Assembly (NCBI RefSeq): GCF_009931435.1
Contig: NZ_CP043414.1
DNA: 64,000 nt
Direction: 5' to 3' (one strand)
Origin: Escherichia coli
Lineage (GTDB): Bacteria > Pseudomonadota > Gammaproteobacteria > Enterobacterales > Enterobacteriaceae
Part shown: positions 2,264 to 59,240 of the stretch, in pieces
Layout: the number at the start of each line of letters is the position of its first letter
Position numbering within the stretch: position 1 is the first letter of the stretch
Made by a program: the position numbers and the translations under genes
Notes under the pieces: generated by a model
The model's database searches: none
Told to the model about the DNA's origin: nothing
What the model saw: only the letters and a program-made list of their open reading frames with translations

Positions 2264-5505
<3,242 letters not shown>

Positions 5506-52662: not shown

Positions 52663-52733
52663 GTGATAATAGCCATATCGAATCGCTTCCGGCAACTCGT
52701 GAGTAAAAAGATTCGGTATCAGAAGAGGTGAGT

Positions 52734-53804
52734 ATGGCTAACGCCTGGCTCAGATTATGGCATGACATGCCAAATGACCCTAAGTGGCGAACAATTGCCA
52801 GGGTGTCAGGGCAGCCAATTGCAACAGTGATGGCAGTGTATATCCACCTCCTGGTGAGCGCGTCACGAAATGTCACGCGAGGTCACATTGATGTCACGAC
52901 AGAAGATTTGGCAAGTGCGCTCGACGTGACAGAAGAGGTAATTGATTCAATTTTGCAGACGATGCAGGGGCGGGTACTTGATGGTGATTTAATCACTGGA
53001 TGGGAAAAACGCCAGGTGCTTAAAGAGGACAACGGCAATATTTCGCAAACCGCAAAATCTCCTGCAGAGCGCAAGAGGGCGCAGCGAGAGAGGGAAAGAA
53101 AGCGGGAACAAAATGGCGATTGTCACGGCGCATCACGAAATGTCACGCACATGTCACGACGAGTCACGACAGATAAAGATACAGATAAAGATACAGATCA
53201 AGAAGATCAAAACACTATGGTCCATGGCGTAAAAAACGCTACGAACCAGGCAGGGGATGTTCAGACCGTCAATCCTGGTCAGCCAGCAGGCACGACACCG
53301 GAAGCCGATTCAGCGTATGCGCTGAAACCCGATTCGGGCGCTGTGCAGCAGGTGATGACCCAAAGGCCGGAACAATCACACCAACTGCAGCAGCCTGAAG
53401 CCGATTCCGCCATTCAGCGGGAAGCCGATCGGGTAGTCCCGGAAAACACCGGGCTGTCTGTGGGACGAGTGGATTATCCGGATGTGTTCGAACAGGTCTG
53501 GCGGGAGTACCCGTTGCGTGCCGGAGCAAACCCGAAGAAATCCGCTTTCAGTGCCTGGAAGGCCAGATTACGCGAGGGGGTGCCACCAGAGGCCATGCTG
53601 GATGGCGTGAGGCGTTACGCAAGATACTTGGCGGCTACCGGGAAAACGGGAACGGAATTTGTTCAGCGAGCGACGACGTTTTTTGGACCGGACCGGAATT
53701 TTGAGAACCCCTGGTTGCTCCCGGTAAGCGGCACGAACAACCAGCGTTGTGTGAATCATATTTCTGAACCGGATAACGAAATTCCGCCGGGCTTCAGGGG
53801 GTAA
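52734..53804 (+). CDS. replication initiator (lambda O-like replisome organiser)
   Basis: 356 aa from ATG 52734, with a GAAGAGG SD sequence; the ORF track starts at GTG 52728. N-terminus MANAWLRLWHDMPNDPKWRTIA.... Contains iteron arrays within its own coding sequence and a conserved-looking C-terminal domain (VFEQVWREYPLRAGANPKKSAFSAWKARL). Confidence 0.65.
   Translation: MANAWLRLWHDMPNDPKWRTIARVSGQPIATVMAVYIHLLVSASRNVTRGHIDVTTEDLASALDVTEEVIDSILQTMQGRVLDGDLITGWEKRQVLKEDNGNISQTAKSPAERKRAQRERERKREQNGDCHGASRNVTHMSRRVTTDKDTDKDTDQEDQNTMVHGVKNATNQAGDVQTVNPGQPAGTTPEADSAYALKPDSGAVQQVMTQRPEQSHQLQQPEADSAIQREADRVVPENTGLSVGRVDYPDVFEQVWREYPLRAGANPKKSAFSAWKARLREGVPPEAMLDGVRRYARYLAATGKTGTEFVQRATTFFGPDRNFENPWLLPVSGTNNQRCVNHISEPDNEIPPGFRG
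52862..52900 (+). repeat. Iteron cluster A: four GTCAC(G) repeats at 10-11 bp phasing
   Basis: GTCAC at 52862, 52872, 52882 and 52893. The 16-mer TCACGAAATGTCACGC (52863-52878) recurs exactly at 53133-53148. Confidence 0.6.
53122..53214 (+). repeat. Iteron cluster B plus an A/T-rich tract: putative prophage replication origin inside the O-like gene
   Basis: (G/A)TCAC at 53122, 53132, 53142, 53153 and 53163. Immediately followed by AGATAAAGATAC x2 and an A-rich tract (53171-53214). This mirrors lambda ori architecture. Confidence 0.55.
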
Positions 53805-53844
53805 GTGTTAATTTCTGGTCATGAGGTAATTTTCAGGAGGGCTT

Positions 53845-54270
53845 GTGGCAAAAGTTTTTACACAAGAAGAGCGGGAAAAAATTAAAGGGCAGGTTGTTGA
53901 ACTCGTACGCCAGAGTGGGCGCGAGACGTTACGACAACTGGAAACTAAAACTGGGGCAACAAGATATCTGATGAGCGTTCTGGCCAGAGAGCTGGTTGCC
54001 AGTGGCGATGTATACAACTCTGGTTACGGGTTATTCCCGTCTGAACAGGAGCGTAAGGACTGGCAAAATGCCCGTAAAAAGCTCTCAAGGGCAAAGCTGA
54101 AGAAACCATCTGCGGTTGATCCGGACCTTATCTGGTCATTACCTGACGGAGAAATACGTCGCTACGATAGTTGTCTAAACATAATCTGTCGCGAGTGCCG
54201 GAAGAGCGAAGTTATGCAGCGCATTATGGCATTTTATCAGGGAAATGTTAGGTATTTTAGACGTTACTAG
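53845..54270 (+). CDS. 141-aa hypothetical protein in the helicase-loader (P) slot
   Basis: GTG start 6 nt after AGGAGG. Basic; I recognise no family. Confidence 0.55.
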   Translation: MAKVFTQEEREKIKGQVVELVRQSGRETLRQLETKTGATRYLMSVLARELVASGDVYNSGYGLFPSEQERKDWQNARKKLSRAKLKKPSAVDPDLIWSLPDGEIRRYDSCLNIICRECRKSEVMQRIMAFYQGNVRYFRRY

Positions 54271-54427
54271 ATTAAAGGGCATTAGTTCAGATATGCATTG
54301 ACATTTTCATGGCACAAGGTAGAGCTAGCGTGGTTGTTCGCTTTGTGCCAAGAGTGGTCATTGATAATATTTTGGTGGGTTACATCTGTCAATGTTTCAG
54401 GTGATATGATATACAAATAGCCAGACT

Positions 54428-54456
54428 TAGACTGGCATGCTGTTTATTTTTATATT
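54428..54456 (+). promoter_or_regulatory. Candidate sigma70 promoter for the 341-aa gene
   Basis: TAGACT-17-TATATT in an AT-rich 227-bp spacer, about 40 nt upstream of ATG 54498. Confidence 0.3.
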
Positions 54457-54497
54457 ATGGGTGTGCCACATGGATTTAAAACTTATTGAGATATGAC

Positions 54498-55523
54498 ATG
54501 GATACTTTTCATAATATTTTGCTTGAGCACATAGACAGCCTTTTAAAAGAGAGACTTGATTTATCTGGTGACGCTGATATCGAAAAAGAAATTAATAACC
54601 TAATTCCCAAAATAGTCATTGTCGTTAAAAAATCTCTTATTGGCTCGGCCAATGCAATGCTTAGAGAACATCGTTCTCTTTGTGATGAATTTGTTGAGAG
54701 AAATATTTCAAGATGGGCAGAGGCTTTTGATTTGCTCGAAACACTTATAGTGATATGCACGGAGTCCGGTGAAGAGTTCAATCGTTCTTATAGACCACAA
54801 GCTGCCTCTGAAGAGGATGTGGTTTTTGATTTAGTCGTTCGGCATCACGCAAGAGCTTGCCACATCGCCAACGAAATTTTGTGTCTCTTAAAGAATGGAT
54901 TTGCAGATGCTGCCCAAGCGAGATGGCGAGCACTTCATGAGGTAGCAGCCACAGCTATGTTTATAGCAAAGCATGGAAAAGAGTGTGCTGAGCGCTTTTA
55001 CTACCATGAAGTGGTTGATTCATATACTGGAATGTTGGAACACAAAAAGTACGAGCACCGGTTAGAAGCAAAAGGTCCAACTATTGAAGAAATAGCTGAG
55101 TGCAAAGTTCAATTTGATCTATTAATAAAAAAATACGGCAAAAAATATGCAGATAATTATGGGTGGGCATCTTATATTTTCCCTAACCATAATAAAGTGG
55201 GGTTTGGAGCTATTGAGAAAGATGTTCAGTTAGAACACATGCGCCCTTATTATAAGTGGGCGAGTCAGAATGTACACACCGGTTCCAAGGCAATGAGAAA
55301 TAGGCTTGGTCTCTGTGAAACTGGTGATGATATATTATTGGTCGGGCAAAGTGATTCAGGAATGGCTGATCCAGCCCATGCTACTGCTATTAGTTTGATG
55401 CAGATTACTGTGACACTTTTATTCTTAAAACCAACCATTGATCATGCCGTCATTTCAAAAATAATACAGGATTATTCTGATGAGATTGGAAATGTATTTC
55501 TTAAAATTGATAAGGGTAATTAA
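54498..55523 (+). CDS. 341-aa helical protein with a central Rx4H (HEPN-like) motif; possible DUF5677/AbiV-type protein; candidate defence/abortive-infection gene
   Basis: ORF in a visibly AT-rich segment. I prefer ATG 54498 over the track's TTG 54486. Motif ...HHARACHIANEILCLLKNGFADAAQARWRALHEVAATAMFI..., with R142-x4-H147 at nt 54921-54938. Second block: YYKWASQNVHTGSKAM. No TM segment or signal peptide. Confidence 0.6.
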   Translation: MDTFHNILLEHIDSLLKERLDLSGDADIEKEINNLIPKIVIVVKKSLIGSANAMLREHRSLCDEFVERNISRWAEAFDLLETLIVICTESGEEFNRSYRPQAASEEDVVFDLVVRHHARACHIANEILCLLKNGFADAAQARWRALHEVAATAMFIAKHGKECAERFYYHEVVDSYTGMLEHKKYEHRLEAKGPTIEEIAECKVQFDLLIKKYGKKYADNYGWASYIFPNHNKVGFGAIEKDVQLEHMRPYYKWASQNVHTGSKAMRNRLGLCETGDDILLVGQSDSGMADPAHATAISLMQITVTLLFLKPTIDHAVISKIIQDYSDEIGNVFLKIDKGN

Positions 55524-55808
55524 AAATTGGAAAAGTGATAGTATATTCTTGTTTTTTTACTGGTAATTAAATGTTTTTAAAGTTACTAGTTCACACCTAT
55601 CGAACGTCCGGTCTTCGCCCAAAGCGGACTAGAAGGTTAGCTTGCGTCGGATTTGGCGTATTTAAAGAATCGCTGGTGGTTACTGGTTGTTGTGTTCCAT
55701 TTCTACAGAACAAAATCACAGAAACTATACCCAATAGTTGTATCTCATCAATGATGAGAGAGCCTCATATTTATCAGGACTGGTGTACGTCCAATACAGG
55801 AGGTTGTC

Positions 55809-55898
55809 GTGCTGGTTCTCAAATGTGCGCTGGCTATTGCAGCTGTAATGGCAATTTATTGTCTTGCTGTTGTTCTTATGGATCGCCTTTCTGATTGA
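55809..55898 (+). CDS. 29-codon hydrophobic small ORF (possible small membrane toxin/peptide)
   Basis: AGGAGG (55798-55803), a 5-nt spacer, then GTG. Encodes MLVLKCALAIAAVMAIYCLAVVLMDRLSD. Overlaps the 3' part of the track's 107-aa Cys-rich frame in another phase. Confidence 0.4.
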   Translation: MLVLKCALAIAAVMAIYCLAVVLMDRLSD

Positions 55899-55905
55899 TT
55901 TTATA

Positions 55906-55934
55906 TTGGCCAGGTGACGGGAGTTAAGTAGAAT
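55906..55934 (+). promoter_or_regulatory. hok mRNA promoter
   Basis: TTGGCC-17-TAGAAT. The predicted 5' end (about 55939) begins the segment GCGGGTGCTTGAGG, which is complementary to 56315-56329 (fold-back pairing typical of hok mRNAs). Confidence 0.5.
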
Positions 55935-55999
55935 GGCTGCGGGTGCTTGAGGCTATCTGTCTCAGGCATGAACACCAAAGGCAGATAGAGAAAAGCCCC

Positions 56000-56061
56000 A
56001 GTTAACATTACGCGTCCTGCAAGACGCTTAACATTAATCTGAGGCTCAATCTATGAACGGC
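56000..56061 (-). ncRNA. Sok-like antisense RNA
   Basis: Minus-strand TTGCCT-17-TAACCT (56096-56068) inside the mok 5' region. The transcript would cover the mok start and end at hairpin GCGTC-ttgcag-GACGC (56012-56027). Coordinates are approximate. Confidence 0.35.
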
Positions 56062-56265
56062 AAATCTAGGTTAGCCTCTTACGTGCCGAAAGGCAAGGAG
56101 AAGCAGGCTATGAAGCAGCAAAAGGCGATGTTAATCGCCCTGATCGTCATCTGTTTAACCGTCATAGTGACGGCACTGGTAACGAGGAAAGACCTCTGCG
56201 AGGTACGAATCCGAACCGGCCAGACGGAGGTCGCTGTCTTCACAGTCTACGAACCTGAGGAGTAA
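56053..56265 (+). CDS. mokD: Mok regulatory reading frame (in frame with hok)
   Basis: 70-aa ORF MNGKSRLASYVPKGKEKQA+Hok, the same arrangement as annotated mok/hok pairs. Confidence 0.6.
   Translation: MNGKSRLASYVPKGKEKQAMKQQKAMLIALIVICLTVIVTALVTRKDLCEVRIRTGQTEVAVFTVYEPEE
56110..56265 (+). CDS. hokD: Hok-family type I membrane toxin
   Basis: MKQQKAMLIALIVICLTVIVTALVTRKDLCEVRIRTGQTEVAVFTVYEPEE (51 aa). Near-identical to remembered HokD/RelF. Confidence 0.92.
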   Translation: MKQQKAMLIALIVICLTVIVTALVTRKDLCEVRIRTGQTEVAVFTVYEPEE

Positions 56266-56333
56266 GAGACTTGGCGAGGGAGAAATCCCTCGCCACCTCT
56301 GATGTGTCAGGCATCCTCAATGCACCCGCACTT

Positions 56334-56358
56334 AACCCGCTTCGGCGGGTTTATTTTA
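56334..56358 (+). terminator. hok mRNA terminator
   Basis: AACCCGC-ttcg-GCGGGTT followed by a T-rich run. Preceded by the 9-bp hairpin GGCGAGGGA-gaaa-TCCCTCGCC (56273-56294). Confidence 0.75.
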
Positions 56359-56723
56359 TCTGTAAATATTTTTATAAAAATAATGCCCACACACAGCATA
56401 AAACAAAAAGTATCACAGATAAAAAAGGAGCGTAATGTGCAGATTTGTTGTTTTCCATATTTACTCACTTTAACATAATCAATATTGATATGGTTGTTGT
56501 TTCGGTGGTTTCAAACGAGATGTTATGGTGATCTGGTAAAATTGCATAACATTAAAATTTAATTTATCTAATCGCTTTTAATAATAAGCGTTGTGTTTAT
56601 CCCAATAATCTGTTGTTTGACTTTTATTCCATTAATGTAGGGGCTTTACACTGGAACCAGTTTATTTATACTTTATACGCCAGCCTGAACAACTGGCACC
56701 TGCTGCGCCAGCAGAGACAACCG

Positions 56724-57002
56724 ATGGCGCACGATACCAAATTACACAATTCTGATGATTCTGCCGTCTTTGCCAGCAGGTGCGGACGGCGTTTTCATGC
56801 ATTCAAATCGGACTGGTTCCAGCATCCACCATGCACTGAAGAGCAGGCTGAATGGATAATTCAGTGTTACCGCAGGCGCGGATACGAGGTTAAAAAAGCC
56901 CTTAGCCTCGACTACCGTCACTGGATAATCTCAGTCAGATTGCCTTACTCCGAACGCCCACCGCGTCCGTCCCACACATTCCAGCAACGCATCTGGAGGT
57001 AA
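56724..57002 (+). CDS. Rem-like small prophage protein
   Basis: 92 aa from the internal ATG (MAHDTKLHNSDDSAVFASRCGRRFHAF...). Occupies the rem position between hokD and ydfU. The ORF-track TTG start is 37 codons upstream. Confidence 0.55.
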   Translation: MAHDTKLHNSDDSAVFASRCGRRFHAFKSDWFQHPPCTEEQAEWIIQCYRRRGYEVKKALSLDYRHWIISVRLPYSERPPRPSHTFQQRIWR

Positions 57003-57003
57003 C

Positions 57004-58053
57004 GTGCGGGTATTACTTCGACCTGTTCTGGTACCGGAACTCGGGCTGGTGATCGTTAAGCCGGGCCGTGAATCCATGCCGGTATTCCACAATACCCGGT
57101 TACTGGTGGAGCCGGAACCGAAAAGCATGCGTAATCTGCCGTCCGGGGTCGTTCCTGCCGTTGGCCAGCCGCTGGCGGAAGACAAAACATTGCTGCCGTT
57201 TTTTAGTAACGAACGGGTGATTCGTGCTGCTGGCGGCGTTGGCTCATTGTCTGACTGGCTATTACGTCATGTTACATCCTGCCAGTGGCCTAATGGCGAT
57301 TACCATCACACTGAAACAGTCATTCACCGTTATGGTACCGGCGCAATGGTGTTGTGTTGGCACTGCGACAACCAACTGCGTGACCAGACATCGGAATCAC
57401 TGGAGCTGCTTGCTCAACAAAATCTGACAGCATGGGTGATTGACGTCATCCGTCACGCAATAAGCGGTACGCAGGAGCGGGAATTATCTTTGGCTGAATT
57501 ATCCTGGTGGGCGGTCTGCAATCAGGTGGTGGATGCACTACCTGAGGCTGTATCGCGTCGTTCGCTGGGATTACCAGCGGAAAAAATCTGCTCGGTGTAC
57601 CGCGAAAGCGACATCGTACCGGGAGAGCAGACCGCCACCAGCATATTGAAACAACGCACAAAAAATCTTGCACCGTTGCCTTACGCCCACCAGCAACAAA
57701 AACTACCACAGGAAAAGACGGTGGTAAGCATCACCGTTGATCCAGAGTCTCCGGAATCTTTCATGAAGCTGCCTAAACGTCGCCGCTGGGTTAAGGAGAA
57801 ATACACACGTTGGGTTAAGACACAGCCGTGTGCTTGCTGCGGTATGCCAGCCGACGATCCGCATCATCTGATTGGTCACGGGCAGGGCGGAATGGGAACA
57901 AAAGCACATGATCTCTTTGTGTTGCCTTTGTGCAGAAAGCATCACAACGAGCTGCATACGGATACAGTGGCATTTGAAGAGAAGTATGGCTCCCAACTGG
58001 AGCTGATATTTCGTTTTATCGATCGCGCGCTGGCAATTGGCGTACTGGCGTAA
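57004..58053 (+). CDS. ydfU: DUF968 protein YdfU (HNH-like C-terminus)
   Basis: 349-aa ORF with GTG start. C-terminus reads CACCGMPADDPHHLIGHGQGGMGTKAHDLFVLPLCRKHHNELH. Confidence 0.82.
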   Translation: MRVLLRPVLVPELGLVIVKPGRESMPVFHNTRLLVEPEPKSMRNLPSGVVPAVGQPLAEDKTLLPFFSNERVIRAAGGVGSLSDWLLRHVTSCQWPNGDYHHTETVIHRYGTGAMVLCWHCDNQLRDQTSESLELLAQQNLTAWVIDVIRHAISGTQERELSLAELSWWAVCNQVVDALPEAVSRRSLGLPAEKICSVYRESDIVPGEQTATSILKQRTKNLAPLPYAHQQQKLPQEKTVVSITVDPESPESFMKLPKRRRWVKEKYTRWVKTQPCACCGMPADDPHHLIGHGQGGMGTKAHDLFVLPLCRKHHNELHTDTVAFEEKYGSQLELIFRFIDRALAIGVLA

Positions 58054-58953: not shown

Positions 58954-59240
58954 TTAAATGGGGCAATGGTAATGTTGAATCTCATCCCGGGACTCATGTC
59001 TGTTAACTTATTATTTAGCTGGTGACTTGGTTATTTGCCTGATGTTTAAAATGTTTTCTTCCAGTACAATGCCCCTAAACACAATGAGTCTGCTTATTAT
59101 ATTATTAGCAGAGCTATTACGGCCAAAGTACAGCATAAGCTTTTAAAGCCAATCAACCAGTCATCAAGACAGACGGGGTTATTCATAAAAACTCTCCATG
59201 TGTGATCCGATGGGGCCTGAAATTAAAGCTTTAATATAGC

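Follow-up and report, generated by a model that had tools for sequence, protein, structure and literature searches.

The subject of this study is the segment from 55,524 to 55,898 of a 64,000-nucleotide stretch of Escherichia coli DNA (contig NZ_CP043414.1, assembly GCF_009931435.1; this whole stretch is called the window), and in particular an open reading frame (ORF) of 29 codons at its right end. Comparison with homologous copies indicates that the frame is very probably a real, translated small gene. It would encode a predicted single-pass membrane peptide and is best regarded, with reasonable though not full confidence, as a small membrane-protein gene, compact and self-contained, and not demonstrably a toxin/antitoxin locus of type I. 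What the homologous loci show is the gene itself, its limits, its compactness, and the fact that it depends on neither neighbour (a DUF5677 gene upstream and a hok/sok locus downstream). As in other small single-pass membrane proteins, there are no more than 50 amino acids, one predicted transmembrane (TM) helix, a ribosome-binding site, and purifying selection. The peptide belongs to an unnamed family of single-pass small proteins found on prophages and a virulence plasmid, and represents no new kind of system.

Conservation of the 29-codon frame

Two features define the gene:

55809–55898, plus strand: gene of 29 codons with a GTG start and a TGA stop, encoding MLVLKCALAIAAVMAIYCLAVVLMDRLSD, a predicted single-pass membrane peptide
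55798–55803, plus strand: Shine-Dalgarno (SD) sequence AGGAGG, 5 nt ahead of the GTG

This arrangement was first proposed from the letters of the window and a list of its ORFs, and the AGGAGG, the 5-nt spacer, the GTG at 55809, and the TGA at 55896–55898 were all confirmed. The original prediction also described one helix of TM length followed by a short charged tail, and the length of 29 amino acids and the hydropathy of the core agree with that description: the grand average of hydropathy (GRAVY) is 1.81 overall, and residues 6–24 average 2.7 (Kyte-Doolittle). The likely topology places the N-terminus inside and the acidic C-terminus outside, given a single N-terminal lysine, the tail DRLSD, and the positive-inside rule. 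In the 64-kb window, AGGAGG stands 4–8 nt before the start of just three frames of 25 or more codons; the other two are ordinary long genes. This rarity, together with conservation as a frame, argues that the 29-codon ORF is more than chance.

Homologues were collected independently of the ORF, using as anchor the upstream non-coding sequence AAACTATACCNAATAGTTNTAT, which yielded 120 loci in IMG/VR; copies found by BLAST in E. coli and six matches in species-representative genomes were added. Of 136 homologous copies, 135 retain the frame intact, and the SD sequence reads AGGAGG in 124 and AGGGGG in 10 of 134. The 22 ORF haplotypes differ by 15 synonymous and 14 non-synonymous single changes, distributed 9/4/16 over codon positions 1, 2, and 3, and pairwise diversity at these positions is 0.039, 0.015, and 0.102. 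The ratio of non-synonymous to synonymous polymorphism (pN/pS) is 0.33 in this frame, compared with 0.63 and 1.67 in the two other frames, and the amino-acid replacements are conservative (A/T/V, V/I/L, M/V/I/T, D/E/N, and L/F). Within the ORF, the sole insertion or deletion (indel) is the in-frame loss of 3 nt from copy L003; the 200 nt upstream of the ORF carry indels of 1, 2, 4, 5, and 14 nt across homologues. It is the frame that is conserved and not merely the DNA that carries it, a distinction which the original prediction had proposed to draw from synonymous and non-synonymous changes. The sole copy with the ORF deleted is L058 (IMGVR_UViG_2778261226_000002, approximately 3883–4000); it keeps the conserved upstream DNA, which there runs straight into the hok 5' region.

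The strongest single evidence for coding is offered by the alignment with a diverged copy on the virulence plasmid pINV, present on 135 plasmids of Shigella and enteroinvasive E. coli (EIEC). This copy is about 20% diverged, with 79% amino-acid identity, and has an intact frame encoding MLVLKGTLAIAAVMTIYCLIVVLMERFSD; the SD sequence is identical, and an ATG occupies the exact position of the prophage GTG. Compared with the prophage consensus, synonymous divergence (dS) is 0.62 and non-synonymous divergence (dN) is 0.12, for a dN/dS of 0.20. The ORF matches at 74 of 90 positions and 55767–55808 at 37 of 42, so that this proximal segment is better conserved than the ORF itself. The distal upstream region is eroded: 55606–55698 aligns with 34 matches, 30 mismatches, and 29 gaps, and the alignment has a 36-nt gap within it. 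On pINV, hok has been reduced to its promoter and about 70 nt of its 5' end, and its coding region is gone. Variants with an ATG start were looked for in viral contigs and none were found. The pINV relic is situated within the long regulatory region of icsP, approximately 290 nt upstream of that gene (copy L150, 3330–3700; S. flexneri pINV NZ_CP026794.1, approximately 167.5–167.9 kb).

Of 5426 complete E. coli genomes, 1703 (approximately 31%) carry the ORF together with its proximal 5' region, in up to three places per genome; most of these copies, which number roughly 1,900, are at least 90% identical. Carriers include UTI89 (NZ_CP064825.1, 1399759–1399890), ATCC 25922, and O55:H7, and the gene is also carried by four isolated phages (Tritos, Evi, mEp460_ev081, and HannyBb). 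The scan of species-representative genomes found it only in Escherichia and Shigella, apart from three contigs of metagenome-assembled genomes (MAGs). These are short contigs labelled Collinsella, Candidatus Scatousia, and Haemophilus (L129, L130, and L132), in which the conserved segment is present at near identity, and they probably reflect binning contamination. Annotation at the ORF is missing from all of the 60 copies sampled across the ranking; RefSeq calls a 29-amino acid hypothetical protein (WP_000960667.1) in one genome of another sample, and other sources label the peptide as a hypothetical or membrane protein. The peptide had not been recognized as a member of any family, and searches of Pfam, NCBIfam, PHROG, and PADLOC likewise gave no family match, the lone PHROG match (E = 0.74) being meaningless. 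A 2026 survey of Hok proteins contains nothing relevant to the peptide.

The upstream region and its signals

The features of the upstream region and the start of the gene are as follows:

55606–55913, plus strand: conserved module common to prophages, delimited by BLAST boundaries across E. coli genomes, by alignments, and by diversity per segment
55524–55605, plus strand: 3' flank of the DUF5677 cargo, outside the small-gene unit, containing TGATAGTAT; diversity 0.69
55606–55630, plus strand: hairpin GTCCG...CGGAC with a hypervariable loop, at the left edge of the module and at the point from which loci are homologous
55743–55748 (-35) and 55766–55771 (-10, CATATT), plus strand: putative sigma-70 promoter with a fixed 17-nt spacing in homologues
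55743–55750 and 55752–55759, no strand assigned: haplotype-specific 8-1-8 inverted repeat, overwriting the plus-strand -35
55724–55751, minus strand: promoter-like TTGATG-16-TATAGT from the promoter scan (9 of 12 matches), its -35 overlapping the plus-strand -35 back to back
55776–55819, plus strand: possible stem-loop pairing the GGA of the SD sequence and the GTG start, from the minimum-free-energy fold of 55774–55822 (-13.5 kcal/mol)

The DNA ahead of the gene had been described as an apparently non-coding leader of about 280 nt. The region is non-coding, but it is not a single leader, as constraint extends only about 40–110 nt upstream of the start. Homology between loci begins abruptly near 55606 and either stops at 55913 or runs on into hok, and the module consists of a drifting segment (55606–55698), a constrained promoter and 5' region (55699–55808), the ORF, and 15 nt past the stop. 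Diversity in the drifting segment is 0.12–0.20, at or above that of ORF third positions (0.102; 0.124 for 55606–55698), and the segment carries indels of 1–14 nt, with deletions of 14 nt tolerated; from about 55699 to 55808 it falls to 0.065–0.088. In the copies from O55:H7 and E. albertii, a SIR2 cargo replaces everything upstream of 55760, leaving about 48 nt of native upstream sequence and an intact ORF. The extended -10-like element TGATAGTAT is present at 55536–55544 but is not a feature of the small-gene unit: the segment 55524–55605 is not conserved with the ORF and therefore belongs to the DUF5677 cargo. A frame of 107 amino acids upstream of the gene had been doubted from the start, and rightly; it starts in the non-conserved flank and is broken in homologues by the indels of 1, 2, 4, 5, and 14 nt, so it was rejected as a gene.

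The hairpin at the left edge keeps a stem CCGC/GCGG, with variants GUCUGC/GCGGAC and GUCUGCU/AGUGGGC (read by eye) that pair through G-U on the plus strand only. Its role may be that of a recombination boundary or of a structure at the RNA end of cargo transcripts.

The plus-strand -35 reads TTGAAT in 102, TCTCAT in 15, and TTGATT in four of 121 copies, and the -10 CATATT and the 17-nt spacer are present in all 121. The pINV copy reads TTGAGT-17-CATATT, with nine of the 17 spacer bases different. Conserved hexamers at a fixed spacing around a drifting spacer point to a sigma-70 promoter, from which transcription would start at approximately 55778–55780 and give a 5' untranslated region (UTR) of about 30 nt. 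The inverted repeat was originally described as 7-1-7. It is present, but measures 8-1-8 and occurs in only 15 of the 121 copies; it is therefore a haplotype-specific change and not a conserved element, and because of it the window copy has TCTCAT as its -35. The majority sequence at the site is TTGAATCACTGACGAG, and an intermediate, TTGAATCAATGATGAG, in L004-type copies suggests that the repeat arose by stepwise perfection of a quasi-palindrome through template-switch mutation. Closer to the gene, the predicted fold plausibly occludes the SD sequence and start codon: among 24 haplotypes pairing holds in 98.1% of cells, and one-sided variation that still leaves a pair is seen at 11 of the 13 pairs. 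Folds of the whole leader are not unusually stable (z = -0.96 on the plus strand and +1.31 on the minus strand).

The reading that best fits these observations can be set out as follows. In most copies a weak sigma-70 promoter, TTGAAT-17-CATATT, would drive the unit. After it would come a 5' UTR of some 30 nt, by which the SD sequence and start may be partly occluded, and then AGGAGG, 5 nt, GTG, and the 29 codons. The weak promoter and the GTG start, and possibly also the SD hairpin, would hold output down. In Escherichia and Shigella, Qin/mEp460-like lambdoid prophages would carry the unit as a "moron"-like accessory gene. There it sits at the right border, the constant one, of a hypervariable cargo hotspot, and a hokD-type hok/sok locus usually follows immediately. 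The peptide is expected to insert into the cytoplasmic membrane and act there, where it might serve as an effector, membrane-perturbing or of the exclusion type, or modulate a host membrane protein.

Several points weigh against this reading. The copies are closely related and for that reason hold few independent substitutions. The promoter has eight of 12 consensus matches, which is under the threshold of the scanning tool, and the -35 of the window copy is a poor match, so that this copy may be poorly expressed or dependent on read-through. The SD stem-loop is no more stable than shuffled sequences (z = -0.96), and no double compensatory changes were seen in it among the 24 haplotypes. No terminator was found to separate the ORF from the hok promoter, and at the RNA level the independence of the unit is therefore incomplete. 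A full-text literature search for the peptide and its accessions, together with the Sakai small-gene and Pro-SMP supplements, gave no mention of the peptide. An activity at the level of the membrane is purely our inference.

The minus-strand site and known type I loci

The alternative that survives best, although it is doubtful, is a type I locus in which the peptide is a membrane toxin and an RNA from the site at 55751–55724 is antisense to a long 5' leader, blocking translation or stability of the messenger RNA (mRNA). The short E. coli type I toxins TisB, ZorO, ShoB, DinQ, Ibs, and Ldr are tiny, with one hydrophobic helix. The peptide shares with them a length below 30 amino acids (29, as in TisB and ZorO), a single hydrophobic helix, charged ends, and a strong SD sequence, as well as a location on a mobile element or island and a start region possibly occluded by a fold. 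It also adjoins another type I locus. It differs from them in lacking sequence similarity, in that no small RNA gene with a terminator or stable structure was identified beside it, and in that the constrained 5' region is short here and not a long processed UTR; toxicity is putative in the present case. This comparison is drawn in part from PMC2887945 and PMC3919570.

The predicted minus-strand TTGATG-16-TATAGT is indeed present and was also picked up by the promoter scan. Its -10 TATAGT and 16-nt spacing are found in 121 of 121 copies, a constancy that is partly built in for the copies found by the anchor, within which the -10 partly lies. The copies found by BLAST and the pINV copy keep the hexamer and the spacing as well, and in pINV, which reads CTGACT-16-TATAGT, the -35 is improved. 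A cis-antisense pair could also tolerate the neutral-looking drift of 55606–55698, since complementarity would be automatic, and the fold at the start would fit such a locus.

Against a type I locus, with the putative plus-strand start near 55778, an RNA begun near 55717 would not overlap the ORF mRNA, and no plus-strand promoter was identified upstream of 55717. For the putative minus-strand RNA the terminator scan found no intrinsic terminator, no stable fold was obtained (z = +1.31; alignment fold -12.7, compared with -37.3 for the plus strand), and an Rfam search of 54000–57500 at E ≤ 1 returned the neighbouring hok/sok only. Its trans pairing with the proximal ORF mRNA was no better than that of shuffled sequences in five haplotypes. 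The 8-nt repeat GTGCTGGT lies in a stretch deleted from L005-type and pINV copies, the O55:H7 and E. albertii copies have lost the entire antisense promoter and leader and kept the ORF, and the peptide resembles neither Hok nor any family model. What suggests a type I locus is thus the format of the peptide and one promoter-like site, which leaves that reading possible but unsupported. A second minus-strand site, TTAACT-18-TAAAAT (55927–55898), would give an RNA antisense to the whole ORF; it was rejected because most haplotypes lack the key A of its -10 and its -35 is confined to hok contexts.

Neighbouring genes and the cargo hotspot

The gene lies in a Qin-like lambdoid prophage, and 55524–55940 matches E. 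coli APEC O78 and numerous other strains at 100% identity. In RefSeq the order in APEC O78 is DUF977, DUF5677, a gap with nothing annotated, hokD, a hypothetical gene, ydfU (DUF968), and the ydfT antiterminator gene. The neighbouring features in the window are:

54498–55523, plus strand: 341-amino acid DUF5677 gene, one of many alternative cargo genes (Pfam PF18928, E = 6e-34; PHROG 27456; RefSeq)
55906–56355, plus strand: hokD-type hok/sok locus (Rfam RF01794, 110 bits; promoter and terminator scan; RefSeq hokD)
55906–55934, plus strand: hok promoter TTGGCC-17-TAGAAT (promoter scan)
55941–56115, plus strand: 5' region of the hok mRNA (Rfam RF01794)
56053–56265, plus strand: mok, part of the hok/sok locus
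56110–56265, plus strand: hokD (RefSeq annotation)
56334–56351, plus strand: hok terminator (terminator scan)

Neighbours were surveyed at 90 loci with enough flanking sequence, taking the nearest upstream ORF of at least 80 amino acids. The ORFs in this position, which may lie on either strand, fall into no fewer than 36 unrelated families; DUF5677 is the neighbour in nine of the 90 loci, and elsewhere it is, among others, DUF4145, SIR2, a phospholipase D next to a retron HNH gene, or an OLD-like ATPase. Such variety places the small gene on the constant right border of a cargo hotspot and argues that it is no partner of the 341-amino acid gene, whose product had no match in PADLOC. The hotspot spans approximately 54271–55605 (with its equivalent in L001–L128), and its left border is the DUF977 ("Ren-like") gene.

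Downstream, hok follows in 71 of the 90 loci (79%). Loci without hok have a DUF1971 gene after the module, on the opposite strand (as in L003 and L004); among them is a prophage remnant, beside chromosomal MFS and LysR genes, that is shared with the S. flexneri chromosome. Since no terminator precedes hok, read-through into it may occur, and such read-through is not essential because hok-less copies exist. The frequency of hok downstream raises an improbable alternative, that the ORF is an upstream cistron or 5' extension of hok/sok, transcribed into hok and modulating the folding or expression of its mRNA. The ORF stops 8 nt before the hok -35 with no terminator between, and the pINV relic holds the ORF together with the hok promoter and 5' end. 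However, 19 of the 90 loci lack hok, among them the widespread L004-type remnant and the S. flexneri chromosome; on pINV the ORF is still under purifying selection after loss of the hok coding region; and some hok loci match the promoter part of the query only and have no module (H90). The hok mRNA of plasmid R1 needs its own defined 5' end for 5'-3' pairing, which also speaks against a transcribed extension. The hokD-type locus resembles the small gene in lying in the same prophage segment and in encoding a membrane peptide, but the small gene is also found without hok and has no Hok homology. An origin by duplication of hok was rejected: BLASTP gave no alignment of the peptide to HokD, and the Rfam sok/hok model matches 55941–56115 only.

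It is less probable still that the ORF is a chance one without function, conserved because the surrounding prophage DNA is young. The high identity of most copies has left a short time for decay, and adjacent non-coding DNA is conserved too. Nevertheless, substitutions are biased by codon position and the low pN/pS is confined to this frame, the only ORF indel is in frame next to flanks with frame-breaking indels, and the pINV copy, at a dS of 0.62 and dN/dS of 0.20, retains an intact ATG-start frame in company with a decayed leader and hok.

Weakest of all is the proposal of the original prediction that the ORF encodes a small membrane partner or effector co-transcribed with the 341-amino acid DUF5677 ("HEPN-like") gene: the two are adjacent on one strand in the window with no terminator predicted between them, yet conservation starts near 55606, 82 nt past the DUF5677 stop, and the expected constant co-occurrence fails, at least 35 other unrelated families on either strand replacing DUF5677, so that comparison of these loci leaves the partnership refuted as a general rule.

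Read as a compact small membrane-protein gene, the unit resembles two known classes. The small inner-membrane proteins encoded on the E. coli chromosome, such as YohP, YncL, MgtS, CydX, and AcrZ, likewise have 15–50 amino acids, a single TM helix, a strong ribosome-binding site, and a conserved frame, and were likewise missed by annotation pipelines; proteins of this kind were reportedly found by Hemm et al. in 2008 through ribosome-binding-site models and conservation. In contrast to that class, the gene is on prophages and a plasmid and not in the core genome, has no homologue there, and was found only in Escherichia and Shigella. The second class is that of phage morons, independent accessory transcription units in prophages (PMC3594210). 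The gene resembles these in being a small accessory gene that has promoter-like signals of its own, is situated in the accessory part of the early-right operon, and is present in some but not all related lambdoid prophages, as seen in hok loci without the module (H90) and in the loss of the ORF from L058. It differs from morons in that no terminator of its own was found and in its position on the constant border of the hotspot, as opposed to the variable cargo.

Two further observations concern the same prophage. A second 29-codon frame, with a hydrophobic C-terminal half, lies on the minus strand at 59097–59186 of the window, between the ydfT antiterminator gene and cspF, and is annotated as hypothetical (WP_120795389.1) in the APEC O78 RefSeq record. 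APEC O78 also carries an IS2 element between the replication gene and the DUF977 gene, which is absent from the window (52728–54270, compared with L001 3125–4353); the window therefore derives from a related strain and not from APEC O78 itself.

The gene is thus present in 31% of complete E. coli genomes, under purifying selection, almost never annotated, and outside all of the protein families searched. It marks the constant right edge of a hotspot that exchanges SIR2, PLD, DUF4145, DUF5677, OLD-like, and retron-associated genes, and can thus serve as a convenient anchor in searches of the hotspot. If the peptide is benign, it is a further example of the conserved small membrane proteins that remain unlisted; if it is membrane-active, it would be a new small toxin or exclusion factor beside hok/sok. 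A bolder proposal, put forward only tentatively, is that the peptide is the first member of a new family of membrane toxins or exclusion effectors carried by prophages and plasmids, which would be controlled by the divergent minus-strand RNA or by mRNA folding and would aid prophage or pINV maintenance, or abortive infection, alongside hok/sok. If that were true, an addiction or defence function in approximately one-third of E. coli genomes and on the Shigella pINV would have been missed by annotation.

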